The position numbers and the translations under genes were made by a program. Positions 551-64,000 of a stretch of 64,000 bases of DNA are shown piece after piece (within the stretch, counting starts at the first letter, position 1; the number at the start of each line of letters is the position of its first letter). The DNA is taken from contig CAWIIB010000009.1 in the NCBI GenBank assembly GCA_963836075.1, positions 1,984,001 through 2,048,000 of the forward strand. Reading direction: 5' to 3'. The notes beneath the pieces were generated by a model. That model saw only the letters and a list, made by a program, of their open reading frames with translations, did not search any database and had not been told where the DNA came from. The stretch comes from an uncultured Acidobacteriota bacterium (lineage in GTDB: Bacteria; Acidobacteriota; JAQAZP01).

Positions 551-1717
551 TCAGGGTGCGATCCCGGTCACCGTGCAACTGTCCGAAGCCGTGTCGCCGG
601 CCGGCGGGTAGGGTGGCTGGTTGTATGGCTCGGGGGTGACATCTTCGGCCAGCAGCAGGAAGTGGTTGTCCCCGATCACCGAACCGAGGGCCGGGATGGT
701 GAGGCCAAAGGTGCTGGCGAAACTCTCCCCGGCCGCCACGTTGGTGTATCCGGCACGCCAGCCGGGGAACCAGGCGCCACCGGCCAGGGTGACGTCGATG
801 CGGCCGGCAATCCGGCGCCGCTGCCCCTGGTAGAGGTTGTCCAGGGTCAGGGTGATCAGGGACTGGAACGGCACCGTGCCCGATGAGGGCGAGCAGTCCA
901 GGGCGACGGAAACGGTTTCGCCGGGAACCGGGGATGTGTTGGGAACCAGGTTGTCCACGGCGGCCCGGTTGCTGCCCGAGGCTCTCAGCTGCAGCCACAT
1001 GGTGTCCCAGGTCTCCGGCCCGGCATCGGGATGCAGCCGGCCCAGCTGGAGGTTGATCCCCTGCAGTCCGCTCACCGCCTGGAACTCGGTGTCGCCGTCG
1101 GTGATGTTGAGATAGAACAGGCTCCCCGCCCCCTCTCCGCCGTTGGCGGTGAAGTCGATGCGCAGTTCCATGCGGTACCAGTCATTGCCGCTGTTTCCTG
1201 CGCCAAAGGGCGTGGATGTGGACGCGCCGAAGTTGGCCTCCCGCAGAGTGAAGTTCCTGTCGTAGTCGCCGAAGACCGGCCCCAGCTCGCCGCCGCTGCC
1301 GTTGCTGTAGGGGTCCTCTTCCAGGACGCCGTCACCGTCCAGGTCGTGGCCCAGTCCGAAGAGGGCGAGGTGCTCGCCGTTGAGCTCGAACCGGATCACC
1401 GCATCGGTGGCGGATGAGTTGAACGCCGTGAAACCGAATGCGGTATCGTTGGCCCGGGCGAGATAGACATCCTCGTCAAAGGCCACGGTGGGCAGCGGAC
1501 GGGCGACTTTTGTATCATTGCCGGTATCGTCGAGGTAGATCACACCATCGCCCTGGCCCGGTTTGTCCACCCAGTTGTCATGGCCGTCAATAAAACTGTG
1601 GATCGACAGGGATTCAAAATCGTAGACCTCGGGCGTCTGTGCCGACACCGGGGAGTTCCCGCAAAAAACAGCAATGATAAAAAGCGCGGCGGCCAATACT
1701 TTCCACGGGTGATACAT
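551..1717 (-). CDS. Secreted protein with unknown N-terminal beta-rich domain plus 120-aa CTD-A
   Basis: Signal peptide (MYHPWKVLAAALFIIAVFCGNSPVSA); GAGG upstream of ATG 1717, alternative starts up to 1759; last 120 aa homologous to three other ORFs here. Confidence 0.85.
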   Translation of the reverse strand: MYHPWKVLAAALFIIAVFCGNSPVSAQTPEVYDFESLSIHSFIDGHDNWVDKPGQGDGVIYLDDTGNDTKVARPLPTVAFDEDVYLARANDTAFGFTAFNSSATDAVIRFELNGEHLALFGLGHDLDGDGVLEEDPYSNGSGGELGPVFGDYDRNFTLREANFGASTSTPFGAGNSGNDWYRMELRIDFTANGGEGAGSLFYLNITDGDTEFQAVSGLQGINLQLGRLHPDAGPETWDTMWLQLRASGSNRAAVDNLVPNTSPVPGETVSVALDCSPSSGTVPFQSLITLTLDNLYQGQRRRIAGRIDVTLAGGAWFPGWRAGYTNVAAGESFASTFGLTIPALGSVIGDNHFLLLAEDVTPEPYNQPPYPPAGDTASDSCTVTGIAP

Positions 1718-1786
1718 CTTCATCCTCATACGTTCAACCGCAAATTCATCAATTTCCAACTCTTCCGATTATACCCCTGAATATAA

Positions 1787-1822
1787 ACAGGGAACCAGGG
1801 CTTTGGACCCCGGTTCCCTGTG
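1787..1822 (-). terminator. Probable intrinsic terminator of the fur-mauG-like operon
   Basis: ACAGGGAACC…GGTTCCCTGT hairpin followed on the minus strand by TTTATATT. Confidence 0.55.
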
Positions 1823-1856
1823 TTATGGTCACGCTGAATTACTGTCCCGGCCGTCC

Positions 1857-2270: not shown

Positions 2271-2282
2271 GGCTCACTCCTA

Positions 2283-5266: not shown

Positions 5267-7556
5267 TCAAGGTGTATCGAAAATACCCCCCGCCACCGTC
5301 CCTCCGCAGAGCAGCCCTTGGTCGGCGTAGGCGTCGAACTCGACCACACTCATCGCTTCGGTGTACAGATTGGTGACCCGCCAGGCCGCAACCATGGCCG
5401 GCTCCCGGCTGTCCGGCCCCGGGACGGTGATGATATCGACGATCCCGTCGCCGTGGACGTCGGCGGCGGCCACGCGGACACCGCAGCGGGTGTCGTCATA
5501 CTCGTAGGCGAAGTAGTTCACCTCCGGCATCGCGGTGACCCCGGCGCCGTCATAGTGCCAGCCGCGCACCTGGGCGCCGAAAACGGGGGAGGGGCCCGGG
5601 CCGGTGAGGATCTCATCCCGGCCGTCACCGTCGATGTCGCCGCAGGCCACGTTGACCCCGTATCTCAGGGTGCCGTAGGCGAAGTAGCTGATCCCGGTGA
5701 TCGGCTGTGCCGCTGTACCGTCGATGTTCCAACCACGGACGTGGGGCCCGAACACCGGGCCGGGGCCGGCACCGGTGACGATCTCGTCGATACCGTCGCC
5801 GTCGATGTCGCCGCAGGCTGTGTTGACGCCCCACTTGAGGGTGCCGTAGGCGAAAAAGCTGACCCCGGGGACCGGCTGAACTGCAGCGCCGTCCACGTTC
5901 CAGCCGCGGACGTGGGGCCCGAACACCGCACCGGGCCCGGCGCCGGTGACGATCTCGTCGAACCCGTCACCGTCGATGTCCCCGCAGGCCACGTTCACCC
6001 CGTACCTGTTCGTGCCGTAGGCCAGGTAGCTGACCCCGGGCACCGGCTGGCCAGATGGGCTGAAGCCCCGGACGTGGGGGCCGAAGATGGCGCCCGGGCC
6101 CGGACCGGTGACGATTTCGTCCAGGCCGTTGCCGTCCAGGTCGCCGCAGGCCACGTTGGCTCCCCAGGCCTGGGCCCCGTACGCCGCCCACGATTCGAGC
6201 GGGATCTCGTCGCCCAGCGGATCGAAGCACCTGACCAGCGGCGGATTGATCGCCGCCGGCCCCGGGCCGGTGACCAGGGTCAGCACCGGGTAGTCCAACT
6301 CATCGTAATACGCGTGGAGAAATTCGTCCCAGGCCGTGTCGGCGGGGAAGTCGAGCTCTACCGCTTCGGTACTGCGGGTCGTACAGCCGCCCGCTCCGGG
6401 GAAAGGAAATGCTCAGGCCGCGGGCGTTTTCCTCGATCGACCCATGGCATTCGGCCACCACCGCGGTTTCCATGGCGGTGCGCACCGCCTGGAGGTCGTC
6501 GAGGATCACCGGGTCGTCGGTCAGTCCGGCCAGCTGTTCGGCGAAGTGGTGGACGTCGATCAGGCCGTAACGTTCGGCGCCCCAGAGGCAGAACTCCTGG
6601 GAGCGGTGGCGGGCCAGACGAATCGGATCGACCAGCGTATCGAGGCGGGGGATCAGGTCGGTGGCCAGCTGGTCGATGGCCGCGGCGGCCCCGGCCATTG
6701 CCGAGGTGTCGGTGGCGCTCATGGTCAGGTAGGTGTAGTCCTGATAGTAGTTGTTCTCCCCCACCAGCCGGATGAGCTCCGCCCCCAGCTCCGCGGACGG
6801 AGTGTCCGGCGCGGCAATGAGCGTGTCGCAGAAGCCGTCGAAAATCCCGTTCCAGCGGGCATATCCGCTCAGTTCCTCGCTGCCCACGTAGACCCCCACG
6901 CTCTCCCGCAGTTCGTAGACCGACTCGAAGCAGCCCATCAGGCAGGGGGCGGTGAAACAGAGCAGGTCCACCGGCCCCGCCTCGCCCAGCGCCAGCTGGA
7001 AATCGTTCATGGTCAGGATGTCGTCGCCGTCGGTTTCGTCAACGCAGGCGCCCCGCCAGGCGCCACCATGGTCGTAGCAGGCCAGCAGGTAGCGGTCTGC
7101 CGGGTAGTTTGCCTTCGCGTAGAGCAGGAAATCCCGCAGCGTGTCGGGGTGGCCCATGTTCAACTCGCCGAGGTCGTCCAGCCTGGTCATCTCGTGGTTC
7201 TCACCGATGTGCCAGATGTCGGCTTCCCTGTAATCCCCGTCCCTGAGAACGAGGACGTTGAGATTCGGTCCCGAGTGGGCGTCCCGGGCGAAATCGTTCA
7301 GCGGGTCGTAGGCGTAGTAGAAGTCGGCGTCGTCGTAGAGGAGGATGGTCCAGGTGGTGGCCCCGGGGGAAGGGTTGGGCCGTTCAGGCACTTCCACTGA
7401 CGGGCGGAGTCGGTGGACCGGCCGGTCCTTTGCCTCGAGGACGCGCAGGGAATCGTTCGGCGAGGGGTAGAACCCGCTTCCCCGGATCTCATCCCCCTTG
7501 GCGGTCGGAGGGAGAAGGACGATGGCCAGCAGCAGGACAAAGAGGGTGCGGATCAT
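5267..7556 (-). pseudogene. Clostripain (C11)-like cysteine peptidase plus CTD-B, split by a +1 frameshift at about 6368 (pseudogene or assembly error)
   Basis: Signal peptide; DHGGAW and FTAPCLMG catalytic motifs; removing one base gives YDPQYEAVELDFPADTAWDEFLHAYYDELDY, colinear with the upstream paralog. Confidence 0.85.
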
Positions 7557-9748
7557 TGGAGTGTACCTCCGGCAATGGTTCCCCCGTGATTCAGCCCCAG
7601 GTCGACGTAGGCATCGATCTCGGCCCGGTTGACCGCAATCACGGTACCATTGGACATGCGCCAGGTGAGAACCAGGGCCGGTTCGTCGGGGTCTGGTCCC
7701 GGGACGGTGAGTATCTCGTCGATGCCGTCGCCGTGGATGTCGGCGGAGGCCAGCTGGACACCGTAGCGGGTAAAAGCGAAATAGTAGGCGAGGAAGTTCA
7801 CTTCGGGCATGGGTGAGACCGAGACGCCGTCATAGCGCCAGCCGCGCACGTGGGCGCCGAACCGATTTGACGGCCCCGGTCCGGTGAGGATCTCGTCCCT
7901 GCCGTCTCCATCCAGGTCGCCGCAGGCCACGTTGACTCCCCACCTGTTGGTTCCGTAGGCGAAATAGCTGACGCCGGGGAGCGGTTGGGCCGCAGCACCG
8001 TCCACGTTCCAGCCGCGCACGTGGGGCCCGAACACCGTGCCGGGGCCGGCGCCGGTGACGATCTCGTCAAAGCCGTCGCCGTCCAGGTCGCCGCAGGCCA
8101 CGTTGACCCCCCACTTGAGGGTGCCGTAGGCGAAGTAGCTGACACCGGGGATGGACTGAACTGTCGTGCCATCCACGTTCCAGCCGCGGACGTGGGGGCC
8201 GAAGACCGCGCCGGGTCCGGGTCCGGTGACGATTTCATCGTATCCGTCCCCGTCCAGGTCACCGCAGGCCACGTTGGCGCCATATTTGTTTGTGCCGTAG
8301 GCCAGGTAACTCACCCCCGGGACCGGTTCGCCGGTGGGGCTGAACCCGCGGACGTGGGGGCCGAAGATGGCTCCGGGGCCCGGTCCGGTGACGATCTCGT
8401 CAAAGCCGTCGCCGTCCAGGTCGCCGCAGGCCACGTTGACCCCCCAGGCCTGGACACCATACGCATGAAAATGACCCTGCATGTCGCCGAATTCCACCGG
8501 GTCGAAGGTCCGGACCAGGGGCGGGTTCTCCGCCCCGGGACCGGGTCCGGTGACGATCATCTCCGCCGGCAGGCCCAGGGCGTCGTAGTAGGCGCCCAGG
8601 AACTCGTCCCAGGCGGTGTCGTCGGCAAAATCGAGCTGCACCGATTCATAGGCCGGGTCGTAGAGCGGCCCGCCACGGTGATAATAGACAGAGAGCCCAT
8701 GGGCCCGCGCATGGATTGGCCCGTGGCACTCGGCCACCACGGCGTCGTCGATGGCCGCTTGAACGCTCTCCAGGTCCTGGAGGATCACCGGGTCGCTGGT
8801 CAGGCCGGCGAGCTGATCGCAGTAATCGTGGAGATCCACCATGCCGAGGTGGTCCGCATACTCCTCCCCCATTTCGTGCGACTGGTTGCGGGCCAGCCGG
8901 AGCTCATCGGTGAGTGAACCGAGGCGGGGGATCAGGTCCTGCCCCAGTCTGTCCACGGCCGTGGCAGCCACGGTGGTGGCGCTGGTGTTGACGGCGCTCA
9001 TGGTCAGGCGACGGTGGTCCTCCCAGTAGTCGTTTTCATCCACCAGCCGAATGATGTCCGCCCCGATGCTTGCTGACGAGTCATCCGGGGAGGAAATGAG
9101 CCGGTCACAGATATCGCCCATGATCTCCAGCCAGTAGATGTAGCCGCTCAACTCTTCGCTGCCCACGTAGATGTCGACGCAGTCCCGCAGCTCGTACGCC
9201 GATTCGATGGCGCCCATGTTGCACGGCGCGGTGAAGCAGATCAGGTCCACCCCCCCGGCCGCGGTGAGTGCCAGCTTGAAGTCGTTCATCGAAAGTTTGT
9301 CGTCGCCGTCGGTGTGGTCGCGGCACGCCCCGGACCAGCCTCCGCCGTGACCGTAGGCGGCCAGCAGATGGCGGTCGGCAGGATAGTGTGTCTTGCCCCA
9401 TTCGAGGAAGGAGAGCAGGGTGTCGGGGTGGCCCATGTTCACCTCGCCCCAGTCCTCGAGGTGGGTCAGTTCGTGATTCTGGCCGACGTGCCACAGGTCA
9501 GCCGGTCCCGCATCCCGGTCCCGCAGGACGATCACGTTGAGGTTCGGCCCTGAGTGGGCGTCCAGGGCAAAGGGCTCCAGCGGATCGAAGGCGCTCTCAA
9601 AATCGGCGTTGTCGTAGAAAAAGAGTGTCCAGGTGGTGCCGCCGGGGGATGGTTCAGACGCCGCAGCGGGAGCGCAGACAAGCAGGGCCAGAACCAGGAC
9701 GGCGGTGAGATTCATCCGGCTCAGAAAGCGCGGGGTAAAACGTAGCAT
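7553..9748 (-). CDS. Clostripain (C11)-like cysteine peptidase plus CTD-B (six GPGP/FG-GAP-like repeats)
   Basis: Signal peptide; WTLFFYDNAD, EVNMG, GHGGGW (His) and FTAPCNMG (Cys); DxDGDGxDEI repeats at the C-terminus. Confidence 0.9.
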   Translation of the reverse strand: MLRFTPRFLSRMNLTAVLVLALLVCAPAAASEPSPGGTTWTLFFYDNADFESAFDPLEPFALDAHSGPNLNVIVLRDRDAGPADLWHVGQNHELTHLEDWGEVNMGHPDTLLSFLEWGKTHYPADRHLLAAYGHGGGWSGACRDHTDGDDKLSMNDFKLALTAAGGVDLICFTAPCNMGAIESAYELRDCVDIYVGSEELSGYIYWLEIMGDICDRLISSPDDSSASIGADIIRLVDENDYWEDHRRLTMSAVNTSATTVAATAVDRLGQDLIPRLGSLTDELRLARNQSHEMGEEYADHLGMVDLHDYCDQLAGLTSDPVILQDLESVQAAIDDAVVAECHGPIHARAHGLSVYYHRGGPLYDPAYESVQLDFADDTAWDEFLGAYYDALGLPAEMIVTGPGPGAENPPLVRTFDPVEFGDMQGHFHAYGVQAWGVNVACGDLDGDGFDEIVTGPGPGAIFGPHVRGFSPTGEPVPGVSYLAYGTNKYGANVACGDLDGDGYDEIVTGPGPGAVFGPHVRGWNVDGTTVQSIPGVSYFAYGTLKWGVNVACGDLDGDGFDEIVTGAGPGTVFGPHVRGWNVDGAAAQPLPGVSYFAYGTNRWGVNVACGDLDGDGRDEILTGPGPSNRFGAHVRGWRYDGVSVSPMPEVNFLAYYFAFTRYGVQLASADIHGDGIDEILTVPGPDPDEPALVLTWRMSNGTVIAVNRAEIDAYVDLGLNHGGTIAGGTLQ

Positions 9749-11704: not shown

Positions 11705-14575
11705 GTGAAACTGCTCAGATACAGCTTGCTGGCTCCTGCTCTGTTGATCGTGGCCCTGCTGGCCGGACCGGGTGATCTCCTTCAGGAGATGGCCGCCGGC
11801 GAGCACCGGCTGACCGAAGTCCAGCGGGAAGCGACCCTCCTGGCGCTGGAAGAAAAGCGGGCCCGGCTGGAAGCGCGGAAACTGAAACCGATGGACCAGC
11901 CGCAGGAAGCGGCGGAGTTCTTCCTCCAGCAGCGGTTGGAGCCGGGGCAGGACAAACTGCCGGTGGGGCGGATGCGGGCGGAGCTGGAGGGGATCAAAGC
12001 TCGTGAAGCGGCACTGGCTGGTGAGGACCGGGAAAGGGGACCGGGCGGCATCTCCAGCTGGCAGTCCATCGGGCCGGGCAACATCGGCGGCCGCACCCGC
12101 TCCATCGTCATCGACCCGGACACCCCCGACACGATGTACGCGGGCGGGGTGGCCGGCGGGATCTGGAAGTCCACCGATGCCGGGGCCAGCTGGAACGCGG
12201 CCGACGACCTGATGCTCAACCTCAGGGTCTGCGCCCTGGCCATCGACCCCACCAATACCAGTGTGCTCTATGCCGGCACCGGTGAGGGTGTGTTCAGCGG
12301 CAGTGGCACCGGAGGCCTGGGCATCTTCAAGTCCACGGATGCCGGGGCCAGCTGGAACCAGTTGGCCGGGACGGTGAGCGGCGTGCCCGAGGGTGCGTTC
12401 AATTTTGTCAACGAGATCGTGATCAGTCCCAATGACTCCAGCCGCCTCTACGCCGCCACCCGCACCGGGGTCTGGCGCAGCACCGATGCCGGGGAGAACT
12501 GGTCCCACCTGCTGGGCAACCCGCGGCATCTCTCGGGCCCGTACAACTCCAACGGGTGTGTGGTGGGCTGCAGCGACCTGGCCGTGCGCAGCGACCGCAA
12601 CCCGGACACGCTCTTTTCCGCCTTCGGCATCTACGAGTCGGACGGGCTCTACCTCTCCGAGGACGGCGGCGACTCCTGGATCGGTTACACCACCGGGCCG
12701 GAGCAGGGCCGGATGGAGATCGCCATCGCGCCGAGCAACAACGACGTGATCTACCTCACCATGGCCGACAACGGCACCGCTGTCCAACTGGGGCGGCTGA
12801 TCAGTGTCTTCCGCGCCGACGACGGCCTGAACTTCAGCGCGGTACTCGACCTGGAACACCCCTTCAGCCCCTGGCTGTTCAGTTACCTGGCCATCGCCAC
12901 CGGCTGCTACGAGCACCCGACAATTTACTCCCAGGGATGGCACGACAATGTCATTGCGGTGGATCCGATCAACCCGGAGATCGTCTGGGTGGGCGGTATC
13001 GACCTGTTCCGTTCAGATGACGGCGGCCAGACCTTTGGCCTGGCCAGCTACTGGTTCTACTTCCTCTGGGATCCCCAGCCCGCCACCTATGTGCACGTGG
13101 ACCAGCACGAGATCGTCTTCCATCCCGGATACAACGGCCTCAGCAACCAGATCATGTATGTGGGCAACGACGGCGGCGTGTGGCGCACGGCCAACGCCCG
13201 GGCCGCCACCACCGAGGAGGAGTGCCCCATCGGTCCGGACCCCGGCCCGCCGCCGGAGATCGTCTGGGAGAACATGAACAACGGCTACGGGGTGACCCAG
13301 TTCTACCACGGCGATGCCGCCCTGACAGCCGACCGCTTTGTGGGTGGTGCCCAGGACAATGGTTCGGCCCAGGTGCTGTCTGCCGGGACCCCGGACAGCT
13401 GGGAATACGTGTACAGCGGCGATGGCGGGTACGTGGCCATCGACCCGCGGGACGACCGGCACTACTTCGTCGAGATCCAGGGCTTTCCCACAATCGCCGA
13501 AACCAACAACGGCGGTATCTCATTCAGTCCAGCGGTAAACGGTATCACCGACACCGACGGCATCTTCATCAACCCCTTTGCCATGGACCAGTCCAATCCC
13601 GACGTCATCTGGACCGGCGGCCGCCGCCCCTGGCGCACCATCGATGGCGCCGGCCTGTGGGAGCTGGCCGGGCCCAATTTCAGCGGTGCGGACAGACTTA
13701 CGGCCATCAATATTTCCCCGGCGGACAGCAACGTGGTCTGGTTCGGCTTCAACAACGGTTATGTGGCCCGGACCACCAACGGTCTGGCCGAGAAGCCGGA
13801 CTTCGAGGTCTTTGCCAACGGCCTGCCGGGCGGGTGGATCAGCAGCGTGGCCGCCGACCCGGTGGACACCGAAACGGCTTACTGCACGATCTCCTCATAT
13901 GGCGTGCCCCACGTGATGAAGACCACTGACGGAGGCAGCAACTGGGCCTCCATCGACGGCATCTCGGTCACCGGCGTGCCCGACATCCCGGTGCACTGGA
14001 TCGCCGTCCGTCCCGGCAACCCGCAACAGCTCTACGTGGGCACCGAGTTCGGCGTCTTTGCCAGCGACGATGGCGGGGGAACCTGGTTCCCGGCCAACAC
14101 AGGGCTGGCCCACACCATCGTGGAATCTCTCGACTGGAAGGATCCGGACACTCTGGTGGCCTTCACCCATGGCCGCGGGGCCTACGTCACCCACCTGGAT
14201 AGCATCGCCACCATCGATGCGGCCCTGGTCTGTGAGCCCTCCACCGGCACCCTGCCCTTTGTCACCCAGCTGTGGGTCACCCTGGGCAATCTCTACGCCG
14301 GGCAGACCCGGCGGGTGGCCGCCCGTCTGGATGTGCAACTGGCCGCGGGTGCCTACTTTCCGGGATGGCGCGCGGGATACACCAACATCGGTCCCGGGGG
14401 CAGCTATTTCACCTCCTGGAACCAGAACCTCCCGGCCCTGGGTACACTGGTGGGAGAGAACGTCTTCACCCTGGCTGCCGAGGACGTGACGCCGTCACCC
14501 TACAATCAGCCGCCCTATCCGCCGGCCGGGGATACCTGCACTTCGCAGCAGATTTTCACTGCTCTGGCGCCCTAA
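11705..14575 (+). CDS. Secreted BNR/Asp-box (VPS10/GH74-like) double propeller protein plus CTD-A
   Basis: Signal-like N-terminus; many SxDxGxxW Asp-boxes; GPGNIGGR, HVDQH, GAQDNG and THGRG motifs; terminal 120-aa CTD-A. Confidence 0.88.
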   Translation: MKLLRYSLLAPALLIVALLAGPGDLLQEMAAGEHRLTEVQREATLLALEEKRARLEARKLKPMDQPQEAAEFFLQQRLEPGQDKLPVGRMRAELEGIKAREAALAGEDRERGPGGISSWQSIGPGNIGGRTRSIVIDPDTPDTMYAGGVAGGIWKSTDAGASWNAADDLMLNLRVCALAIDPTNTSVLYAGTGEGVFSGSGTGGLGIFKSTDAGASWNQLAGTVSGVPEGAFNFVNEIVISPNDSSRLYAATRTGVWRSTDAGENWSHLLGNPRHLSGPYNSNGCVVGCSDLAVRSDRNPDTLFSAFGIYESDGLYLSEDGGDSWIGYTTGPEQGRMEIAIAPSNNDVIYLTMADNGTAVQLGRLISVFRADDGLNFSAVLDLEHPFSPWLFSYLAIATGCYEHPTIYSQGWHDNVIAVDPINPEIVWVGGIDLFRSDDGGQTFGLASYWFYFLWDPQPATYVHVDQHEIVFHPGYNGLSNQIMYVGNDGGVWRTANARAATTEEECPIGPDPGPPPEIVWENMNNGYGVTQFYHGDAALTADRFVGGAQDNGSAQVLSAGTPDSWEYVYSGDGGYVAIDPRDDRHYFVEIQGFPTIAETNNGGISFSPAVNGITDTDGIFINPFAMDQSNPDVIWTGGRRPWRTIDGAGLWELAGPNFSGADRLTAINISPADSNVVWFGFNNGYVARTTNGLAEKPDFEVFANGLPGGWISSVAADPVDTETAYCTISSYGVPHVMKTTDGGSNWASIDGISVTGVPDIPVHWIAVRPGNPQQLYVGTEFGVFASDDGGGTWFPANTGLAHTIVESLDWKDPDTLVAFTHGRGAYVTHLDSIATIDAALVCEPSTGTLPFVTQLWVTLGNLYAGQTRRVAARLDVQLAAGAYFPGWRAGYTNIGPGGSYFTSWNQNLPALGTLVGENVFTLAAEDVTPSPYNQPPYPPAGDTCTSQQIFTALAP

Positions 14576-15661: not shown

Positions 15662-17410
15662 ATGGCAAGGTGGCTGTGCATCAAGCTGCCGTCGGTGATT
15701 CTCCTGTCCCTGCTGCTGGTGGTTGCCTCGGTGTTTTCCGGGGCAGCATTTGCGGCGGAGGATCTGGAGATCATCCAGGCGGTGAAGAACGGTACCCCCG
15801 TTTCGGGGGGCAATCGGGTGGTCATGGGCGAGGTGTTCGCCCGCGACGGCTGAGCGTACTGTCCCTCTGCGGAGCAGGGGATGATAGACCTCTTGGCCAA
15901 CTTCGGTGACGACGAATTCGTCTGTGTCATGTACTACTCCACCAGCGGCTGGTCCTGCCCGGAGCACGGCGACCGTGCCGGTCTCTACGGTGTGAGCGGT
16001 GTGCCCGACGCTTATTTCAGCGGTTATCTTAACTCTCTCGGCGGGCTGCCCAGTGGCTCGATGTATGACTACTACCTGCCCCTGGTGAACCAGGTCATGG
16101 CCAATCCCGGTATGTTGGCAATGTCACTGGACATGACCATCGATGCCGGTACCATCACCGTCAACGGCACCATCGAGGCCCTGGAAAACGCCCCCGATGC
16201 CCTCGTCTACGTCGTGGTCTACGAAGAGGACTCGGGCCGTGAGCCGAACCTGGCCCGTGGCTTCCCGGTGTGGGAGACCATGCTCACCGCCACCACCACC
16301 GGCGCGACCCAGGACATCAGCGGCACCCTGGCCGTGGGCACCGGCTGGAACGAGGCCAACCTCCACGCCATCATGTTTGTCCAGGCCCTGCAGGACTTCA
16401 CGGCCACCCGGATCGTCACCGGTCCCGGCCCCGGCCCGGACAACGTCTGCCGCCTGGCCGCCTGGGTCCCGGAGAATCCAGGCACTGCCGACGTGACCAT
16501 CAACGCATACGGCGTGGACAAATACGGCGTCAACGTGGCCGTGGGCGACCTCACCGGCGATGGCTTTGACGAATTCCTCACCGGTCCCGGACCGGGCGCG
16601 GTCTTCGGCCCGCAGGTGCGCGGTTTCAACTACGAAGGCGACCAGCTCCCCGGCCTCAGCTATTTTGCCTATGGCACCCTGAAATACGGGGTCAACGTGG
16701 CTGCCGGCGACTTGGACAATGACGGTGTGGCCGAGATCCTCACCGGCGCCGGACCGGGCGCGGTCTTCGGCCCCCACGTTCGCGCCTGGAAGTACAACGG
16801 CAGTGAGGTGAGTTCCATGCCGGGGATCAGTTACTTCGCCTACGGCACACCAAAGTATGGTGTAAACGTGGTCTGCGGTGACATCGACGGCGACGGTTTT
16901 GACGAGATCATCACCGGTGCCGGACCGGGCGCGGTCTACGGCCCGCACGTGCGCGGCTGGAACTACGACAATGACACCCTCACCTCGATTCCCAGTGTGA
17001 GCTTCCTGGCTTACAACACCAACAAGTTCGGCGTAAACGTGGCCTGCGGTGACATCGACGGTGACGGGATGGACGAGTTGATCACCGGTGCCGGCCCCGG
17101 CGCGGTCTTCGGGCCGCACCTCCGTGGCTGGAACATCGACGGCGGTACGGTCACGGCCATTTCCGGAATCAACACCATGGCCTTCGACTACACCGAGTGG
17201 GGTATCAATGTTGGTTGTGGAGACGTGGACCGTGACGGCATGGACGAGATCTTTGTCGGTGCCGGTCCCGGCGAGGCCCACGACGCCTGGGTCCGCGGCT
17301 TCAACTATGACGGCGGCACGCTGGAGATGGTGTATGACTTCACCGCCTACGGCGCCCCGGTCATCACCCACGGTGTCAACGTGACCTGTGGCTACTTCTT
17401 CGCCCCGTAA
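15662..17410 (+). CDS. Secreted Omp28/thioredoxin-like selenoprotein (UxxC) plus CTD-B
   Basis: ORFs 15632-15853 and 15881-17410 share a frame; TGA 15851-15853 reads VVMGEVFARDG-U-AYCP; signal peptide in the first half; YGVSGVP cis-Pro loop; SECIS-like hairpin follows the TGA. Confidence 0.85.
15862..15881 (+). promoter_or_regulatory. Candidate bacterial SECIS element
   Basis: TCCC(T)CTGC-GGA-GCAGGGGA hairpin with a bulged U and a G-first apical loop 17 nt after the UGA. Confidence 0.7.
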
Positions 17411-21368: not shown

Positions 21369-23249
21369 ATGAAACGGGATTCGGGTAATAGTGTTTTTTT
21401 CTTGGCCGTGGTCCTGTCAATTGTTGCGCTGCTCGGGCTTTCCACTGTTGCGACGGCCCTGGACACCATTGGCAGCGCCGGGGGCGGGCCGCTGGACGGC
21501 ATGCTCCAGGTGCAGGTGCTGCACGCCGGCACGGGCGCACCCTTTGCCGGGGCCTTCGTTATGGTGGGTGATGCCCCCGGATCCCCTTTTGCCGGCAACT
21601 GGGGCGTCACCTCGGCTTCCGGTGACATCACCTTTACCGACCCTGCCCTCCAGGGGCCGCTCACGGTGACCGCCGGGGCCGCGGGGCACCGCTATGTCAC
21701 CATGGTCCTCGCCGACGCCAGCCAGCTGGTGCTGGCCCTCGAGCCGGTGGCCTCCCTGACCTTCCTCTCCGAAGTGGGGGACTATGTGTCGGGGGTGGAC
21801 GTGGACAACGGGACCTTCAACTTCGGCGACGGAAACGTCGATGTGGCCTTTGTGCTGCGGGCCATGACCCTCGACGACATGATGTCCTTTGACATGGAGA
21901 ACATGTTCGGGCCGGAGGAGTTCATCGATATCCTGGGCCAGCCGTTCCCGGTGCCCTCCAACGTCTTCATCCCCCTGCAATACGAAACCTTCATCCCCAT
22001 CGTCAAGGACCACTACTACCTGTACCTGACCCCCGGGGACGCCACTCTGGCCGCGCTCTCCGGCCGGATGCCGCTGGCTGAGCTGGCGGCCGGCGGCGAG
22101 ATGGTCGACCTGCTGCCCCACATCCAGTGGCGGGAGATGGACGTGCTGGACATCACGGTGGCCGGCGACACCTCCGACGCCGACCTCACCGTCGACCCGG
22201 ACCTCAGCGCAACCGTGACCCTCAACCTGGACAACATTCCTGATGGTTGCACCGGGTTCGGGCTCTCCATCGGCGACCTGGATGGCCTGAACGGCCTGGG
22301 CCGCCTGGTCCCCCTGGGCATGAGTTCCATCGGCTGCCCTGACGGCAGCGGTCCCTGTTCGGGCACCCTGACCCTGACCACCGCCGCCGCCACCGGCGAG
22401 CTGGCCGGCATGGGCTATTTCCCGGCCGCCGCCGTGCAGGGTGACCTGACCAACGATGCGCTCTTTGTCATGGACCGCTCTTCCCACAGCCAGACCTACA
22501 CGGCCACCATCGATTCCTTTTACAACCGTCTCGACCTGGCCTACGGGGCGGGCGGGTTCGCCTGGAACGATGCGGAAAACGCCGCCACCGGCAGCCCGGT
22601 TGTGGACCTCCAGCTGGCCCTGATCTCCAACCCGTTGAACGACGAGGTCTACTGGGAGTTTTTGCTTCCCGGGGGAGCACTCTCCCTGACAATACCCCAG
22701 CTGCCGCCCGAGGCCCCGGCCGGCCTGGTACCGGGCACCGGCTACAACTGGGCTCACACCGCCCTGGGACTGGCCTACGACCTGGCGGTCTTCGACTACG
22801 GGGATTTCGCCTTCTCGGCCATCATTGCCCATGTCAGCCATCTGGCAACCAACAGCCTGGACATCACCTGGGACGCGGCCGGCACGGTCTCCGCGTCCCT
22901 GAGCTGCCTGCCGTCCTCCGGCACCGTTCCCTTTGCCACCGGCATGCAGGTCATGCTGACCAACCTGTACAGCGGCCAGAGCCGCCGGGTGGCCGGCCGC
23001 CTCGATGTCCTGCTGGCCGGCGGCGCCAATTACGGCAACTGGAGGGCCGGCTACACCAATCTCGGTCCGGGGGAAAGCTGGAGCGCTTCCTGGAACACCA
23101 CCATCCCGGCCCTGGGCAGCGTGATCGGTGAGAACAGTTTCACCCTGGTGGCGGTGGATGTGACGCCGTCCCCGTTCAACCAGCCGCCCTACCCGCCGGA
23201 CGGCGATTCGGACCAGGCGGTCTGTCTGGTCACCGGGGTTGCGCCCTGA
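21369..23249 (+). CDS. Secreted protein (carboxypeptidase-regulatory-like N-domain, unknown core) plus CTD-A
   Basis: Signal peptide after MKRDSG; VQV…TGAPFAGAFV…GVTSASG beta-sandwich pattern; terminal 120-aa CTD-A. Confidence 0.82.
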   Translation: MKRDSGNSVFFLAVVLSIVALLGLSTVATALDTIGSAGGGPLDGMLQVQVLHAGTGAPFAGAFVMVGDAPGSPFAGNWGVTSASGDITFTDPALQGPLTVTAGAAGHRYVTMVLADASQLVLALEPVASLTFLSEVGDYVSGVDVDNGTFNFGDGNVDVAFVLRAMTLDDMMSFDMENMFGPEEFIDILGQPFPVPSNVFIPLQYETFIPIVKDHYYLYLTPGDATLAALSGRMPLAELAAGGEMVDLLPHIQWREMDVLDITVAGDTSDADLTVDPDLSATVTLNLDNIPDGCTGFGLSIGDLDGLNGLGRLVPLGMSSIGCPDGSGPCSGTLTLTTAAATGELAGMGYFPAAAVQGDLTNDALFVMDRSSHSQTYTATIDSFYNRLDLAYGAGGFAWNDAENAATGSPVVDLQLALISNPLNDEVYWEFLLPGGALSLTIPQLPPEAPAGLVPGTGYNWAHTALGLAYDLAVFDYGDFAFSAIIAHVSHLATNSLDITWDAAGTVSASLSCLPSSGTVPFATGMQVMLTNLYSGQSRRVAGRLDVLLAGGANYGNWRAGYTNLGPGESWSASWNTTIPALGSVIGENSFTLVAVDVTPSPFNQPPYPPDGDSDQAVCLVTGVAP

Positions 23250-26298: not shown

Positions 26299-28365
26299 CT
26301 ACTCGAACCAGCCGGCAGCCACGGTGGCCCCGTGGGTCCACCCGGCAGGGAAGGCCTCGAGGCTGAACCACTGGCTCACCGTCTCGGTGGCCGGGTCATA
26401 GGTGTAGACCTTCACCGGCGACCCCATGGAGGGGTCGGGGCCGCCGCCCACCACCAGCTCGTCGCCGCCGATGCCGTCGAGGTTGGCGTCGGCGTAGATC
26501 CGGGCGCCGTAGCGTGCTTCGCTGGCCGGCCAGGCAAAGAAGCTGTAGCCGGGAAGTTCCACCAGCTCGTCCCCGTCATAGTTCCAGCCCCGGACATGGG
26601 CGCCGAAAGCGGGGGAGGGGCCGGGCGAGGTGAGGATCTCGTCGATACCGTCGGCGTCCACATCGCCGGAGCCCACCATCACGCCGTAGCGCGGTGTTTC
26701 ATAGGCGAAGAAGCTGATCGCCGGGATGGCCGCCGCCGTCCCGCCGTCCACGTTCCAGCCGCGGACGTGGGGCCCGAATACGGCGCCCGGTCCGGCACCG
26801 GTGACGATCTCGTCGTAGCCATCGCCGTCGTAGTCGCCCGAGGTGACGTTGGTCCCCCATTTCAGCGTGCCGTAGGCGAAGTAGCTGACCCCGGGCACCG
26901 GGCTGATGCCGGGGCCGCCGTCGTAGTTGAAGGCCCGCACGTGGGGCCCGAAGACGGCGCCCGGTCCGGCGCCGGTGATGATCTCGTCGAAGCCGTCACC
27001 GTCCAGGTCGCCGCAGGCCACGTTGACCCCGTATTTCAGAGTGCCATAGGCGAAGTAACTCAGGCCGGGCAGCGGTGTGCCGTCGATCTCGAAGCCGCGC
27101 ACGTGGGGGCCGTACACGTCGCCGGGACCGGCGCCGGTGATCACCACGTCGTGGGTGCCGCCGTTGACCCGGCCGCAGGTGACGTTGACCCCGTAGTAGT
27201 CAGCGCCGTAGGCCGTGAACTCCTCCTCGAAGGCCGCCCCCTGCTCACAGGGGAAGGCCCGCACCACCGGCGGGTTGCTGTAGGCCGGTCCGGGGCCGGC
27301 CAGCACCAGACGGTTGGTGCTGGAGGCCGAGCGCTGGCGATACTCGATCAGCTGGGTCTGCATGACGTAGAACGGCGCCTGGCGGCTGCCCCACGCGCAT
27401 TCCGTGCAGGTCACTCCGTCCACGCAGTCGGGGTGGTCCGGATCGCAGATATTCTCGTAGGGCTCGAGGTTGTAGTCGAGGATTTCCGTTTCCCCGGGGA
27501 CTATGGACGGGGTGATGTCCACGATCCAGGGAAAGGCCTTGTCCCCCGGGCACCAGCCGTTGCGGCTGTAGGACCAGGTGCCGCCCTGGGGGCTGCAGGG
27601 GTTGTTGCGGCAGTCGTTGCGCCAGACATATTCCTGGTAGGCGTCCATATCGGCCACCACCTCGTGCCACTTCCAGGAGAACTCGGCCGCGTTGTCGGTG
27701 TTGCCGAAACCGTGACCGGTGATGTAGGTCCGCACGTGGGCCTCCACCGTTTCGGCGTCGATATCCGCGGCGATGGGCACCAGGTAATTTTCGGAGGGGT
27801 TGTCGAATTTGCCGTAGAGCAGGTGGTCATAGTTCCAGAGGTTGGTGATCTTGTACGGTTCCAGCTCGGTGATCCCGGGCATGAAGGCGAAGTCGCAGGT
27901 GATCAGCCAGCCCTGGCCGCCTCCGACCCAGGTATCGATGAAGAGCTGCAGTGTCACTTCGTCGTGGAGCAGGGTCTCGTAGTCGGAAAGGTCATACACC
28001 CAGGAGCAGGTGCCCGGCCGGGTGGCGCCGGTGATGTCGTAGGGGGTGACGAAACGCATGATCTCGAATTTTTCGTCGGTATCGGTCACCACCCGGATGT
28101 GAGCCAGCCGGTCCCAGGGGTCGCAGTCCCCCGGGGATTCGGGGCAGGCAATGGTCATGTAGCAGAGGATCTCGCCCCACTGGCCGCCTTCCGGAGGGAA
28201 GGTGAAGTCGGCGGTCACCGTCCGCGAGTCGATATCGACCAACTGCTGGTTGAAGGTGTTCACCCACACCGTGTCGCTGCGACTCTTCTCCTCCGCAGTT
28301 GCACCGGGCGCCGGAAACAGGATCGAGAGCACGGCCGCGGCCGCAAACCAATAACGGAGATTCAT
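26299..28365 (-). CDS. Peptide-N-glycosidase F-like protein plus CTD-B (paralog 2)
   Basis: Signal peptide; CDPWDR, RFVTPY, ITGHG, AEF and QGGTWSYSRNGWCPG motifs; GPGP/FG-GAP repeats. Confidence 0.85.
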   Translation of the reverse strand: MNLRYWFAAAAVLSILFPAPGATAEEKSRSDTVWVNTFNQQLVDIDSRTVTADFTFPPEGGQWGEILCYMTIACPESPGDCDPWDRLAHIRVVTDTDEKFEIMRFVTPYDITGATRPGTCSWVYDLSDYETLLHDEVTLQLFIDTWVGGGQGWLITCDFAFMPGITELEPYKITNLWNYDHLLYGKFDNPSENYLVPIAADIDAETVEAHVRTYITGHGFGNTDNAAEFSWKWHEVVADMDAYQEYVWRNDCRNNPCSPQGGTWSYSRNGWCPGDKAFPWIVDITPSIVPGETEILDYNLEPYENICDPDHPDCVDGVTCTECAWGSRQAPFYVMQTQLIEYRQRSASSTNRLVLAGPGPAYSNPPVVRAFPCEQGAAFEEEFTAYGADYYGVNVTCGRVNGGTHDVVITGAGPGDVYGPHVRGFEIDGTPLPGLSYFAYGTLKYGVNVACGDLDGDGFDEIITGAGPGAVFGPHVRAFNYDGGPGISPVPGVSYFAYGTLKWGTNVTSGDYDGDGYDEIVTGAGPGAVFGPHVRGWNVDGGTAAAIPAISFFAYETPRYGVMVGSGDVDADGIDEILTSPGPSPAFGAHVRGWNYDGDELVELPGYSFFAWPASEARYGARIYADANLDGIGGDELVVGGGPDPSMGSPVKVYTYDPATETVSQWFSLEAFPAGWTHGATVAAGWFE

Positions 28366-29451
28366 TGCCCTTACTCCTTCATGCGTTGATTGAAAACTAC
28401 TCAAACCAGCCGGCCGCCACGGTGGCCCCGTGGGTCCACCCGGCAGGGAAGGCCTCGAGGCTGAACCACTGGCTCACCGTCTCGGTGGCCGGGTCATAGG
28501 TGTAGACCTTCACCGGCGACCCCATGGAGGGGTCGGGGCCGCCGCCCACCACCAGCTCGTCGCCGCCGATGCCGTCGAGGTTGGCGTCGGCGTAGATCCG
28601 GGCACCGTAGCGTGCTTCGCTGGCCGGCCAGGCAAAGAAGCTGTAGCCGGGAAGTTCCACCAGCTCGTCCCCGTCATAGTTCCAGCCCCGGACATGGGCG
28701 CCGAAAGCGGGGGAGGGGCCGGGCGAGGTGAGGATCTCGTCGATACCGTCGGCGTCCACATCGCCGGAGCCCACCATCACGCCGTAGCGCGGTGTTTCAT
28801 AGGCGAAGAAGCTGATCGCCGGGATGGCCGCCGCCGTCCCGCCGTCCACGTTCCAGCCGCGGACGTGGGGCCCGAATACGGCGCCCGGTCCGGCACCGGT
28901 GACGATCTCGTCGTAGCCATCGCCGTCGTAGTCGCCCGAGGTGACGTTGGTCCCCCATTTCAGCGTGCCGTAGGCGAAGTAGCTGACCCCGGGCACCGGG
29001 TTGATGCCGGGGCCGCCGTCGTAGTTGAAGGCCCGCACGTGGGGCCCGAAGACGGCGCCCGGTCCGGCGCCGGTGATGATCTCGTCGAAGCCGTCACCGT
29101 CCAGGTCGCCGCAGGCCACGTTGACCCCGTATTTCAGGGTGCCGTAGGCGAAGTAACTCAGGCCGGGCAGCGGTGTGCCGTCGATCTCGAAGCCGCGCAC
29201 GTGGGGCCCGTACACGTCGCCGGGCCCTGCGCCGGTGATCACCACGTCGTGGGTGCCGCCGTTGACCCGGCCGCAGGTGACGTTGACCCCGTAGTAGTCA
29301 GCGCCGTAGGCCGTGAACTCCTCCTCGAAGGCCGCCCCCTGCTCACAGGGGAAGGCCCGCACCACCGGCGGGTTGCTGTAGGCCGGGCCGGGGCCGGCCA
29401 GCACCAGACGGTTGGTGTTGGAAGCCGAGCGCTGGCGATACTCGATCAGCT
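26299..29451. repeat. Near-identical direct repeat of about 1.05 kb (26299-27353 and 28397-29451; offset 2098)
   Basis: Line-by-line comparison shows only scattered substitutions across the CTD-B coding region. Confidence 0.9.
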
Positions 29452-52629: not shown

Positions 52630-52647
52630 CGTGTTGCGTCGTCCGTT

Positions 52648-60350: not shown

Positions 60351-60400
60351 AAAAAAGGGGACCGGCCCCCGCCTTTTGGTGCCGGTCCCTTTCTTGTTTT
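60351..60400. terminator. Bidirectional terminator-like hairpin between convergent genes
   Basis: A-tract, GGGACCGGC…GCCGGTCCC stem, then T-rich tract. Confidence 0.65.
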
Positions 60401-60418
60401 CGTAGCCTGTTTATCCGC

Positions 60419-63400
60419 CTAGGGTGCGATACCTTCCACCGTGCAACTGGCCGTGTCGGTGTCTCCGGAGGCGGGGTAGGGCGGCTGGTTGAACGGCGCC
60501 GGGGTCACGTCCTCGGCCACCAGGGTGAAGCTGTTCACTCCCACCAGTGATGGGATGGCCGGCATATTCTGGGTCCAGGTGGTGTAGTAGCTCGCTCCGG
60601 CCTGGATAATCGTGTTGCCGGCGCGCCAGTTGGGATAGAACTGGCCGTTGGCCAGCGTCACGTCGAGGTGTGCGGCCAACCGGCGGCGGTCACCGGAGTA
60701 GAGATTTTCCAGCAGCACCGAGAACCGGGTGGTGAAGGGCACCGTGCCGGAGGACGGGTTGCAGTTCATGCTGACGTCCAGTGTGCCGACGGAGCCGCTC
60801 CAGGGCTGACACTCTGCACCGGTGACGGTCACGTCGTCGATATACCAGCCGTCGTCATCCACCGACGAGTCGCAGCCGATGCGGAAGCGGATCAGCGCCT
60901 CGGTCCCGGCATACGCCGCCAGGTCGGCGGTGACCCGGGTCATGGTGGCGCCGCTGTCCCCGGACCAGGCGGCCTGTCCGCCGATGGGGTTGCTGCAGCA
61001 GGTGGAAATGGTGTCGTTGTACTCGCCCTCGATGATCATCGGGCCGAGGTCCTCCCAGCCGGCGCCGCCGTCGGTGGAGATCTCGATCACACCGCCGTCG
61101 TAGCCGGTCTCCATGTTGTAGCGGTGCCAGAAAGTCAATTCGGAGAGCGGGGTAAGGGTCACCGTCCGCGAGACGAGGAACTTGTCCGTCACAATGCTCG
61201 GGTCCGAAGCGAACCAGACGTTGTCCGGGCTGTGGGCATAGGAACTGGTGATGATCCCCCAGTCGTCTGCGCCCTGGTCCGCGGAGTGGGTCCACTCGCC
61301 GGGGCCGGCCTCGATGTCGTCTTCGAGGAAGACCGAGGTGCCGCCCACCTGGACGTAGAGCGTGTCGCTGGCGCTGCCCTGGTCGGTGGAGATGTCCACG
61401 TTGAAGCTCAGCATCTGGCCACAGGCCGCCGTGAGGTTGATGGCGAAGCGGGGGTTGGGGCTGAGGCTCGTCCCGGTGGCGCCGGAGATGATGTCGTCGA
61501 AAGTCGCGGTGTCGTCGAGCAGCACCACGAAGGCCGGATCATTGCTGGTGATGGTGGCGCTGACGCCGGTTGTGTTCACCGCGCCGACGTTCTCCAGGGT
61601 CAGTTCCACAAAGACCGTCTCGCCCATGTCGGCGTTGCCGTCCCCGTTGCCATCGGGGAAGTCGGTGATCGCTGAGGAGTGCAGCGTCATCTGCCCCGCT
61701 TCCACCACGATGAAGAACGTGGAATACCAGGTGTCTCCGCTGCTGGCGATCTCCACGTCGAACTGGATGATCTCACCGTGGGGGCAGGAGGAGAGCACGT
61801 CGAAGACGATGGGGTCGGGGTTGATCAACGACTCGTCGGGGTTGAAACTGCCGTAGGTGGAGCTGTTGTCGAGGAACGAGATGTGACCGCTGGGGCTGCT
61901 CACCGTGGCCACCACGCCGTTGGCGGTCTCCACGCCATAGTTCTTCAGGCCCAGTTCCAGCTCGATGGTCTCGCCCGGAGTGGCGATGCCGTCGCCGTTG
62001 CCGTTGGAGTAACCGCTGGCGTCGTCATCGAGGGCATGACTCTCGTAGACCACGTACGGCCCCGAGGGCGGAATCACCGGGATCGCTTCCTGGTAGGTCA
62101 GCATGTTGTGGGCCGTGACCGTGATGGTCAGTGAACCGGGGACCACCGGCGGCGTGCCGAAGGTCAGGGTCACCGCACCGGAGGCGTCGGTGTAGCCCAC
62201 TTCGTAGACTTCGTCGTTCTGGGCGCAGACCATGGCGCCCTCGATACCGGTGGAGACCTGCAGCGTGCCGGTGCCGATGATCATCGCCCCGGGGTGGGCC
62301 ACCGTGGGCATGGCCATGGTGTCGGTCCAGGGATCGATGCAGGAGTCACCCAGCCAGAGGTAGGTGCGGATGTTCGACTCGCCCAGATAACCGTGGTCAT
62401 TGTAGACCGTGACATTGGCGAAGTTGGAGGCGTAGCCGAGGTTCCTGATCCCCAGGTCGAAGATCGCCTTGTAGAACTCCTTGTCGTAGTCGTGATTGGG
62501 GATGGTGTAGGAGGGGATGATTGCCCCGTTGATCGCCACCGCGCCGGCGGTGGTCTTCATCATCGTCTCGGCGAAGCAGTCCCCGCTGTGGGCCGGGAAG
62601 TCCATGTTGTCGCAACAGACGTCGAAGTGCACGAAGTAGCGGTCGACATTGGTGAACTGGTTGACGTGGGAGGCGTTGAAGTCGCCGCTGGTGCCCCACT
62701 CCCACCAGGCTTCCGTGGAGCCGTGGCCGCGGTAGTTGAGAATCCCGGAGCTGTAAGTGTTGATGTAGTCGATCACATCCTGGTTGCTGGCCCCGGCGCC
62801 GCCGTAAGCGGTGTCGAAGTCCGGCGTCTCCAGCGAGTAGGCGTAGGTCCGGATCTCCTCACTGCACTGGGTGTACTTGCCGGGTACTCCTCCGAGTGGG
62901 CCACCAGCAGGCTGTGCTTGGCCCAGTCCGAAACCTCAGGCGCGGTGAGGTAGTCCATGGTCTTGTTGATCTGGTGTTCGAGCTCTGCCGCGGTGTCGTA
63001 CAGAATGCGACCGATGGCCATGTCGGCCAGGTAGTCGCCGGAGCCGTCCATCATCGTATACCAGGAGTCGGAATAGGAGTCGGACCAGTAGTACATCGGC
63101 ACATCGACGCCGCCGGCGCCGCTGTAATAGGCGTCGCCCACCAGCAGCACGTATTCCAGGCCGCTGTCGTTGTAGAGCTGGGTGATGTAGGCCTTGATCT
63201 CCTCCGCGGTTTCAAAGCCGGGCTCGAGGGTCCGCACCTCCACCGGGTAGCCCTGGGCGTGGCGGAAGTCCACCAGCGGCTGGATGTAGGGGATGCAGGC
63301 CGGGGTGGTCACCACCAGGTACCTGGTCCCCGGGGTCACCGAGCCGCGTCCGGCCGTCGGGTAGCCCAGCCGGTCATAGTTGATCACCGCCGAACGGTAG

Positions 63401-64000
63401 AGGTTCTGGAACGGGGCGCTGATCGGACTGCGCTGGCGGGTGAACGCGCGGAGCGGGTTGATGCCGGTGTAGTTGACGGTGACCCGCATCCGGGTGGCCA
63501 CGGTGATCTCGTTTCGTGCCGGGTTGCAGGTGATCGGCCGCATCTCCAGCCGGGTCAACCGGACGTCCCGCCAGATCTGCGGGTCGCCGGCCACCGCCAC
63601 GCTGGCGGGATACGTCTTGTCCAGGCCGTAGGTCGCGCGGTCCACGGTGAAGGCCGTTGCCGGTTCGCTGTCCTTCAGCGGCTGCTGGGCCGGCCAGACG
63701 GTATACCCGGTCAGGGTTACGGAGTCGAGGATTTCAGAGCTGACGATGTAGCCGGCCCGATCGGGAATGCCCACCAGCTGGGCCACCACCGGCAGCTGGG
63801 GCAGGCCCACCCGCCGGAGGGCCGCATCGCTGCCCAGGCTCAGCCGCTGGTAGAGCGTGCCGTCCGCGGTGATCTGTTCCGCATCGAAACCGCTGACCGA
63901 AACCTCGATCACGGTGGCGGCGGAATCATGGGCGACCAGGTCCACCCGGGGGGCAGTGGGTGCGGCACCGTCCAGGGTGATCCACTCCGCGCTGGCCGGG
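60419..64000 (-). CDS. Gingipain (peptidase C25)-like protease with propeptide, Ig-like domains and CTD-A; -1 frameshift at about 62882; 5' end just outside window
   Basis: GLPQLP propeptide; YVLLVGD, SDSWY and IGRI; NYRGHG (His) and DVCC (Cys); adding one base joins the two ORFs (EEYPGKYTQCSEEI); terminal 120-aa CTD-A. Confidence 0.88.

Follow-up and report, generated by a model that had tools for sequence, protein, structure and literature searches.

Ten genes in a 64,000-nucleotide stretch of the genome of an uncultured Acidobacteriota bacterium (contig CAWIIB010000009.1 of assembly GCA_963836075.1, positions 1,984,001 to 2,048,000; hereafter the window) raise the question of why exported proteins with unrelated N-terminal parts (cargos) should end in one of just two modules. 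A first-pass annotation, made from the letters of the window, had called these modules CTD-A and CTD-B (C-terminal domains A and B) and proposed that they form an undescribed sorting or display system. The positional rule that both modules obey, their mutual exclusion, their exchange between paralogues and the types of cargo that they follow show that CTD-A and CTD-B are two alternative C-terminal address modules on exported proteins.

Position and exchange of the two modules

For the window (64% G+C), 47 likely genes were chosen by codon-position G+C, and the last 130 residues of each of these 47 candidate open reading frames (ORFs) were compared by BLASTP with the same 47. Exactly two groups were obtained, CTD-A (four proteins) and CTD-B (six proteins), and no protein had both, as the first-pass annotation had stated. 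Pairs of CTD-A proteins gave a single match of 121-139 residues (55-62% identity) at the very end of the chain. Pairs of CTD-B proteins gave several offset matches each, which indicates a tandem repeat with a unit of ~57 residues; CTD-B, which had been taken for one short module, is an array of such repeats with a total length of ~335 residues.

The whole 6.23 Mb genome (rated 94.7% complete) was searched in the form of all six-frame stop-to-stop ORFs of at least 60 residues. A model built from the four CTD-A copies of the window matched 218 ORFs and gave 191 full-length domain matches, 187 of which end no more than 8 residues from the stop codon. The repeat-unit model of CTD-B matched 154 ORFs, with at least three units in 136 and exactly five in 117, and in 127 of the 136 the array finishes no more than 40 residues before the stop codon. 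CTD-A was found in none of the 154 CTD-B ORFs. The strict C-terminal position and the mutual exclusion described for the window proteins thus hold throughout this genome.

The four non-terminal copies of CTD-A correspond to no Pfam family. One ORF (L080; G000:C1:1527896-1531072) contains two copies, at residues 648-763 and 939-1058, and another (L077; G000:C9:2819387-2822476) has an internal copy at residues 484-608 of 1029; both lack a Pfam family and could be fused or frameshifted genes.

The weight of the two modules in the proteome was apparent when the last 90 residues of all gene proxies of at least 200 residues (3659 in total) were clustered. The two largest clusters had 134 members (132 with CTD-A) and 112 members (111 with CTD-B), and the next had 45. 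CTD-A and CTD-B are therefore the commonest two C-termini of the proteome, and 252 of the 3659 gene proxies carry one of them.

The presence of the modules on proteins with signal peptides, which had also been claimed, was confirmed as an enrichment only, given the high background of the crude heuristic that was used: the test was passed by 110 of 129 CTD-A ORFs and 80 of 104 CTD-B ORFs, versus 1101 of 2170 other long ORFs. The same test was passed by 99 of the 132 public CTD-A proteins that start with Met.

The cargos of 87 of the 150 public CTD-A proteins among the matches listed were scanned with Pfam (E<=1e-8); a family was assigned in 35 and none in 52. The families identified were Peptidase_C25, M28, S8, C1, Beta_helix, PQQ_2, PA14 and Laminin_G_3 (LamG), together with GH5 cellulase, BNR_2, LTD, FGE-sulfatase, CBM96, DUF4465 and other FG-GAP types, a set that is typical of exoenzymes and adhesins. 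FG-GAP repeats can thus precede CTD-A as cargo; the uniform CTD-B cassette never does so in this genome.

Direct evidence that the modules are interchangeable, as had been proposed, came from a comparison of cargos only. A homologous CTD-B cargo (E<=1e-10) was found for 109 of 175 CTD-A cargos, and the top pairs share 50-94% identity, many of them over most of the cargo. In one case the CTD-A and CTD-B genes are adjacent, as a tandem pair, and their cargos are 71% identical. Such close paralogues, differing only in the module, provide a clean natural experiment on the role of each module; one pair is formed by C1:2067442-2069940, with CTD-B, and C1:2069946-2071844, with CTD-A.

Families, predicted folds and distribution

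CTD-B belongs to a characterised family. It is a uniform FG-GAP/VCBS module (Pfam PF01839, PF13517), scoring above the curated cut-off of FG-GAP in all six CTD-B proteins (39.4-56.3 bits, cut-off 22.1) and above that of FG-GAP_3 in five of the six. A match to a characterised Pfam family, which the first-pass annotation had itself named as counting against its proposal, was thus found, for CTD-B alone, and CTD-B cannot be called an undescribed module. In the alignment it consists of a degenerate start, five well-kept ~57-residue units with a G-D-x-D-x-D-G-x-D-E loop, and a closing strand. The D-x-D-x-D-G motif, a putative calcium loop, recurs in five blades at a spacing of ~57 residues. The AlphaFold model of 362 residues, calculated from a 5-row alignment (pLDDT 79.8, pTM 0.85), contains 24 strands plus a terminal strand, and we predict from it a six-bladed propeller with a closing strand. 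Foldseek returned propellers (TMq 0.45-0.59), the first being UmbA4 bound to teichuronic acid, followed by the fungal GlcNAc lectins PVL, PAL and AAL2 and then by Kelch domains, integrin alpha heads and CRTAC1. The nearest clusters in the ESM Atlas were FG-GAP/VCBS, with a score of 0.96. The chain ends in ...AAG(W/L)F-type strands and has no hydrophobic tail.

CTD-A (~122 residues) is predicted to be an immunoglobulin-like beta-sandwich of 8 strands, and family models gave next to nothing. The four whole proteins had no match to the module in Pfam (E<=0.01) or NCBIfam (E<=1). When the four copies were searched alone (E<=10), the sole match was that of NPCBM_assoc (PF10633) to the edge of one copy (16 bits, E 0.015, cut-off 24.4), and CARDB (PF07705) was absent from the matches. 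A profile of 56 CTD-A copies found nothing below E 0.48 among the PDB sequences.

The AlphaFold model of CTD-A (4-row alignment; pLDDT 84.3, pTM 0.75) is the 8-strand sandwich mentioned above. The nearest folds in the Foldseek and VIA-align searches were immunoglobulin-like domains of adhesion or matrix type, such as RbmA (Z 11.7) and the CARDB domain 3idu (Z 9.9, rmsd (root-mean-square deviation) 3.0, 103 residues aligned). AlkC, transglutaminase barrels and complement MG domains were also matched, as were many immunoglobulin-like folds at Z 9-11.7. CARDB/NPCBM_assoc were the nearest named clusters in the ESM Atlas, at a borderline score of 0.90. Sorting tails of the type IX secretion system (T9SS) were absent among the Foldseek matches listed and the top 50 VIA-align matches, a result that leaves room for a relationship.

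Conserved in the 187 genomic copies of CTD-A are a pair of cysteines, close to the first and last strands, as well as a WRAG motif, the loop DVTPxPyNQPPYPpxGD and the end of the chain, which is AP in 111 of the 187. The P-N-Q-P-P-Y-P core of the loop is invariant across 56 copies from three species. The terminus, ...TG(I/V)AP, directly follows a beta-strand and, like that of CTD-B, has no hydrophobic tail. In a full-text literature search, judged from titles and abstracts, we found no description of these modules, nor of an FG-GAP propeller used as such a C-terminal cassette.

Both modules are specific to one lineage, as had been suggested. At E<=0.001 the CTD-A profile matched 495 of 1.84 billion cluster representatives and, among the matches listed, nearly all sit at the protein C-terminus. 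Among 41 related GTDB representative genomes CTD-A was detected in three, all of the genus of the window, and in none of the 38 from 31 other families of the phylum; the CTD-B cassette (E<=1e-60) has the same distribution (3/41). This genus is the only one of its class, and the class comprises three genomes. The framing of the modules in terms of Bacteroidota and the T9SS did not hold, the public records that contain CTD-A being titled Acidobacteriota.

These records include two metagenome-assembled genomes (MAGs) with many copies of CTD-A and two with few. In one of the latter, of 5.1 Mb, all three matches lie on a single contig of 4227 bases (L036), whose gene is 99% identical, in cargo and module alike, to a gene of the genome of the window; the contig may be mis-binned. 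The other, a 1.0 Mb MAG, has two copies, with 42% identity for the one copy compared.

The module-bearing genes of the window

CTD-A ends four genes of the window. In the gene at 551-1759 (minus strand) it forms the last 125 residues (554..928), after a cargo without a known family that begins with the signal peptide MYHPWKVLAAALFIIAV; this protein gave no Pfam or NCBIfam match. On the plus strand, the CTD-A at 14198..14572 follows the BNR/Sortilin-Vps10-like propeller cargo of the gene at 11705-14575, and that at 22872..23246 follows the unknown cargo of the gene at 21243-23249, which has a weak, sub-cut-off match to CarboxypepD_reg and whose start is likely to be at the MKRDSG signal peptide near 21369. 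The fourth copy (60422..60796, minus strand) closes the C25 peptidase gene (ORF 60419-62776). The whole gene spans 60419..64000 on the minus strand and encodes, in order, a propeptide, C25, C25_C, a MAM-like domain and CTD-A. It is split by a single frameshift near 62878-62884, since a 1212-residue orthologue (P0007) aligns in two frames with 85-87% identity. The N-terminus lies beyond the end of the window, the first 20 residues of P0007 falling outside, and at the window edge it reads PASAEW, in agreement with the cleavage-like site claimed there.

Four of the six CTD-B copies are on the minus strand. Two belong to genes of C11 (clostripain-like) peptidases, at 7553-9748 (CTD-B at 7556..8569) and 5267-7556 (CTD-B at 5270..6277). 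In the latter, the ORFs 6300-7556 (Peptidase_C11) and 5267-6298 (CTD-B) constitute one gene with a frame switch near 6363-6367. The C25 and C11 frameshifts may reflect sequencing error or real decay. Elsewhere in the genome there are many short CTD-A ORFs and split cargo fragments, which suggest that frameshifts are frequent in this record.

The other two copies on this strand belong to tandem paralogues encoding PNGase F-like proteins, at 26299-28365 (ORF 26299-28404; CTD-B at 26302..27312) and 28397-30472 (CTD-B at 28400..29410). The last 130 residues of the two proteins are 100% identical and their N-terminal parts differ, which suggests that the CTD-B end was duplicated, or copied by gene conversion, in the recent past.

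On the plus strand, CTD-B closes a BNR_2 (sialidase-like) gene (ORF 34792-37014; CTD-B at 36001..37011), which probably starts between 34900 and 34963, ahead of a signal peptide, and an Omp28-like gene (ORF 15881-17410; CTD-B at 16397..17407). A signal-peptide-like N-terminus of the Omp28-like protein is encoded from 15662, in frame with a TGA codon at 15851-15853 (+), and the gene would extend from 15662 if this codon is decoded. The context is x-TGA-A-Y-C (U-x-x-C if decoded), and a stable hairpin (-22 kcal/mol over 70 nucleotides) is predicted just 3' of the TGA. Read-through raises the score against NF045500 ('Omp28-related selenoprotein') from 25.7 to 41.4 bits, still below the cut-off of 200. 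The gene at 15662-17410 is thus a candidate for an exported selenoprotein.

With the gene models corrected in this way, all ten proteins have N-termini that resemble signal peptides when judged by eye, one more than the nine for which these had been noted. The other genes of the window encode BipA, pyruvate kinase, SSB, a molybdopterin oxidoreductase operon, sulfatases and others. This is ordinary chromosomal content, and the window is accordingly no dedicated locus. With 314 C-terminal copies per 6.23 Mb, ~3 would be expected per 64 kb and 10 were observed, so that the phenomenon, which is genome-wide, is about three times denser in the window than expected.

Possible roles of the modules and comparison with known systems

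The modules may serve in sorting, anchoring or docking, and a machinery or partner for such a role was sought with models of known systems. The T9SS tail model TIGR04183 (six candidates scored) had no match in the genome, nor did those of SprA (TIGR04189, PF14349) and GldM (TIGR03517); all of these models were also silent in the 14 control genomes, which makes these negatives weak and leaves absence unproven. The PorV model NF033710 likewise had no match in this 94.7% complete genome. The four CTD-A proteins gave no match to the T9SS tail (TIGR04183 / PF18962) at the Pfam and NCBIfam thresholds given above, and neither did CTD-A alone at E<=10. Tails of the PEP-CTERM, LPXTG or sortase type (a short motif, a hydrophobic helix and a basic tail) are present in neither CTD-A nor CTD-B, and no PEP-CTERM, LPXTG or SLH type was found in the Pfam and NCBIfam scans; Dockerin (PF00404), Cohesin and SLH (PF00395) had no Pfam match on the ten window proteins. 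The earlier view that neither module is a T9SS tail, or of the PEP-CTERM, LPXTG or SLH type, agrees with these results.

About 20 stretches of the genome match the PorU/C25 model. The best PorU-like protein (914 residues; 201.9 bits versus NF033707, cut-off 420) has no C-terminal module, and its gene (in locus L001, G000:C1:1025753-1030603) is immediately followed by an archaeal-type signal peptidase I-like / S24-like gene. Of the 41 genomes, 14 have homologues, among them 12 that belong to 11 other families and are without CTD-A, and none was found in one of the two sister species (G002); on these grounds the protein was rejected as a specific sortase. The genome encodes two secretins and therefore has type II secretion or type IV pili to draw on.

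Enrichment analysis of the neighbourhoods of the 252 module genes revealed no machinery or scaffold-like family. The top neighbour families were C25 relatives and upstream ORFs interpreted as halves of module genes that frameshifts have split; a family of beta-helix cargos came next. A dockerin-like tail considered for this beta-helix family was dropped, as it had no Pfam match at E<=1e-5. Thirteen repeat-rich ORFs lacking either CTD were scanned and contained no cohesin-like repeat; they encode a multihaem cytochrome, HEAT, LVIVD, Reg_prop sensor proteins/kinases, TPR-CHAT, UvrA and an S8 peptidase with H_lectin. A 924-residue multihaem cytochrome with MtrC/MtrF-like domains (L082, G000:C1:1900183-1902957) hints, by its domain content, at extracellular electron transfer in the lineage. 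Prediction of a complex of CTD-B with CTD-A (score 0.00, mark 0.32) counts neither for nor against binding. The co-occurring machinery that the first-pass annotation had anticipated was thus not detected by T9SS models (subject to the silence of the tail, SprA and GldM models in the controls), by profiling of the PorU-like protein or by neighbourhood enrichment.

We tentatively favour, as a real possibility that falls short of being probable, the reading that the two alternative, independently folding C-terminal modules, carried by a large share of the exported proteins of the lineage, are ligand-binding retention modules. After Sec-dependent export, and a further step across the outer membrane, each module would tether its cargo to one or the other of two shared partners, located at the cell surface or within the matrix. 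For the lectin-like propeller CTD-B the likelier partner would be a glycan, and paralogues of the same enzyme with different modules would be held in two different places. Retention is favoured because lectins and adhesion receptors are among the members of the family of one module, the fold of the other is adhesin-like, and no export machine was found. A common partner may also be indicated by the median identity of 46% between paralogous CTD-A copies on unrelated cargos.

Several points weigh against retention. No ligand, receptor or scaffold emerged from the searches of machinery, neighbourhoods and repeat-rich ORFs, and the location at the surface is putative. The blade number and both folds come from models based on alignments of 4-5 sequences, and the fold matches are generic (immunoglobulin-like; propeller), carrying no functional specificity. 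In 36 putative orthologue pairs with the sister species, mean identity is 81.0% for the cargo and 76.8% for CTD-A; the module is conserved no better than its cargo, as expected of an ordinary functional domain under no exceptional constraint. Finally, binding modules usually tolerate internal positions, and a strictly terminal position with a conserved chain end (AP in 111/187) is more typical of sorting signals.

It is this last combination that keeps alive the explanation that both modules act as signals for secretion or sorting in an undescribed T9SS-like pathway of outer-membrane export or attachment, with type A and type B tags, in which the modules would be read, and perhaps removed by cleavage, by a hypothetical translocon or sortase. 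The existence of two alternative tag classes, the exoenzyme-type cargo with its signal peptides and the PorU/C25-like stretches, the best of them beside the signal peptidase I-like gene, fit such a pathway, and the copy numbers are comparable to those of T9SS cargo sets. Nevertheless, we regard it as somewhat unlikely: the T9SS models, all but that of PorV silent in the controls as well, found nothing, the PorU-like protein is below its cut-off, present in 12 genomes without CTD-A and not found in one sister species, neighbourhood enrichment yielded no machinery candidate, and, as a signal, a propeller of 335 residues is very large. The wider proposal that a class-level lineage without a detectable T9SS runs an undescribed sorting or display pathway, with more than 300 exoproteins (~7% of the gene proxies) bearing two interchangeable folded tags read by lineage-specific envelope machinery, seems to us rather unlikely. 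Carbohydrate-binding modules offer another parallel, in which the target of CTD-A and CTD-B would be a polymer of the environment, not the surface of the cell itself, and many hydrolases would be gathered on a composite substrate. Hydrolases and polymer-binding domains do dominate the cargo, CTD-B resembles lectin propellers and CTD-A is similar to immunoglobulin-like domains that are accessories in glycoside hydrolases and also to adhesins. We nonetheless judge substrate targeting unlikely, because ~250-310 proteins (252 proxies; 314 C-terminal copies), including peptidases, an Omp28-like protein and unknowns, share the two modules, a breadth far beyond the usual use of carbohydrate-binding modules, which are moreover not confined to the extreme C-terminus. 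Duplication of the same enzyme with each module would also have no obvious use on a single substrate.

The remaining explanations have far less in their favour. It may be that no function is shared and that gene duplication in this lineage has simply raised the copy number of two ordinary extracellular domains, as the many paralogous cargos and the rate of change of CTD-A, which is about that of its cargo, would allow. This is very unlikely, since many unrelated cargo families carry the modules, the modules have been exchanged between near-identical paralogues, and duplication alone does not explain an extreme C-terminal position in 187/191 and 127/136 copies. Dockerin-like handles, by which CTD-A would bind CTD-B or a scaffold protein and so assemble a multi-enzyme complex at the surface, would account for conserved handles on many cargos, and the invariant proline-rich loop of CTD-A could serve as the peptide for docking. 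Neither module, however, looks like the rare component of a scaffold, since their bearers number ~190 and ~130, the 13 repeat-rich ORFs have no cohesin-like repeat and no scaffold-like family recurs in the neighbourhoods, so that docking appears most improbable.

Should there be a dedicated pathway or anchor, it would constitute a new route for surface display, and the modules would provide a simple sequence rule for predicting the exoproteome of the lineage. Among known systems, the C-terminal tails of the T9SS of Bacteroidota and their allies (type A, TIGR04183/PF18962; type B, TIGR04131) are comparable in being folded beta-sandwiches at the extreme C-terminus of Sec-exported hydrolases and adhesins, in having two alternative classes, and in having dozens to hundreds of bearers per genome. 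C25, Omp28-like, PNGase F-like and BNR cargo types carry such tails elsewhere. In contrast to these tails, CTD-A is longer (~122 residues, 8 predicted strands) and matches no tail model, CTD-B is a propeller instead of a sandwich, the searches for PorV, SprA and GldM gave no match (the SprA and GldM models with the limit noted above), and the CTD-A records are those of Acidobacteriota.

With the FG-GAP/VCBS propellers (the integrin alpha head, PVL, CRTAC1, UmbA) CTD-B shares a match to the repeat model, the D-x-D-x-D-G loop and a predicted propeller fold. It differs in having six predicted blades, whereas the propellers of integrin and PVL have seven, and in its use, almost unchanged, as the C-terminal cassette of more than 120 unrelated cargos within a single genome. 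The CARDB, NPCBM-associated (NEW3) and DUF11 immunoglobulin-like surface domains may resemble CTD-A in predicted fold (3idu and Foldseek; borderline Atlas score as above). Unlike CTD-A, CARDB domains are not confined to the C-terminus; no model of these families reaches its threshold on CTD-A, which is set apart by features specific to it: the NQPPYP loop, WRAG, the pair of cysteines and the terminal AP. Cellulosome dockerins, SLH domains and other wall anchors have in common with both modules the principle of a conserved terminal module that fixes many exoenzymes to a common partner; they differ in fold and size, none of their models (Dockerin, Cohesin, SLH) matched the ten window proteins, and no scaffold was found. 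Shared C-terminal modules thus organise secreted proteins in several bacterial groups, as T9SS tails, dockerins and sortase signals, and the same logic appears here with different parts, in a lineage known from few metagenome genomes: one part is without a known family, and for the other an entire propeller serves as the cassette.

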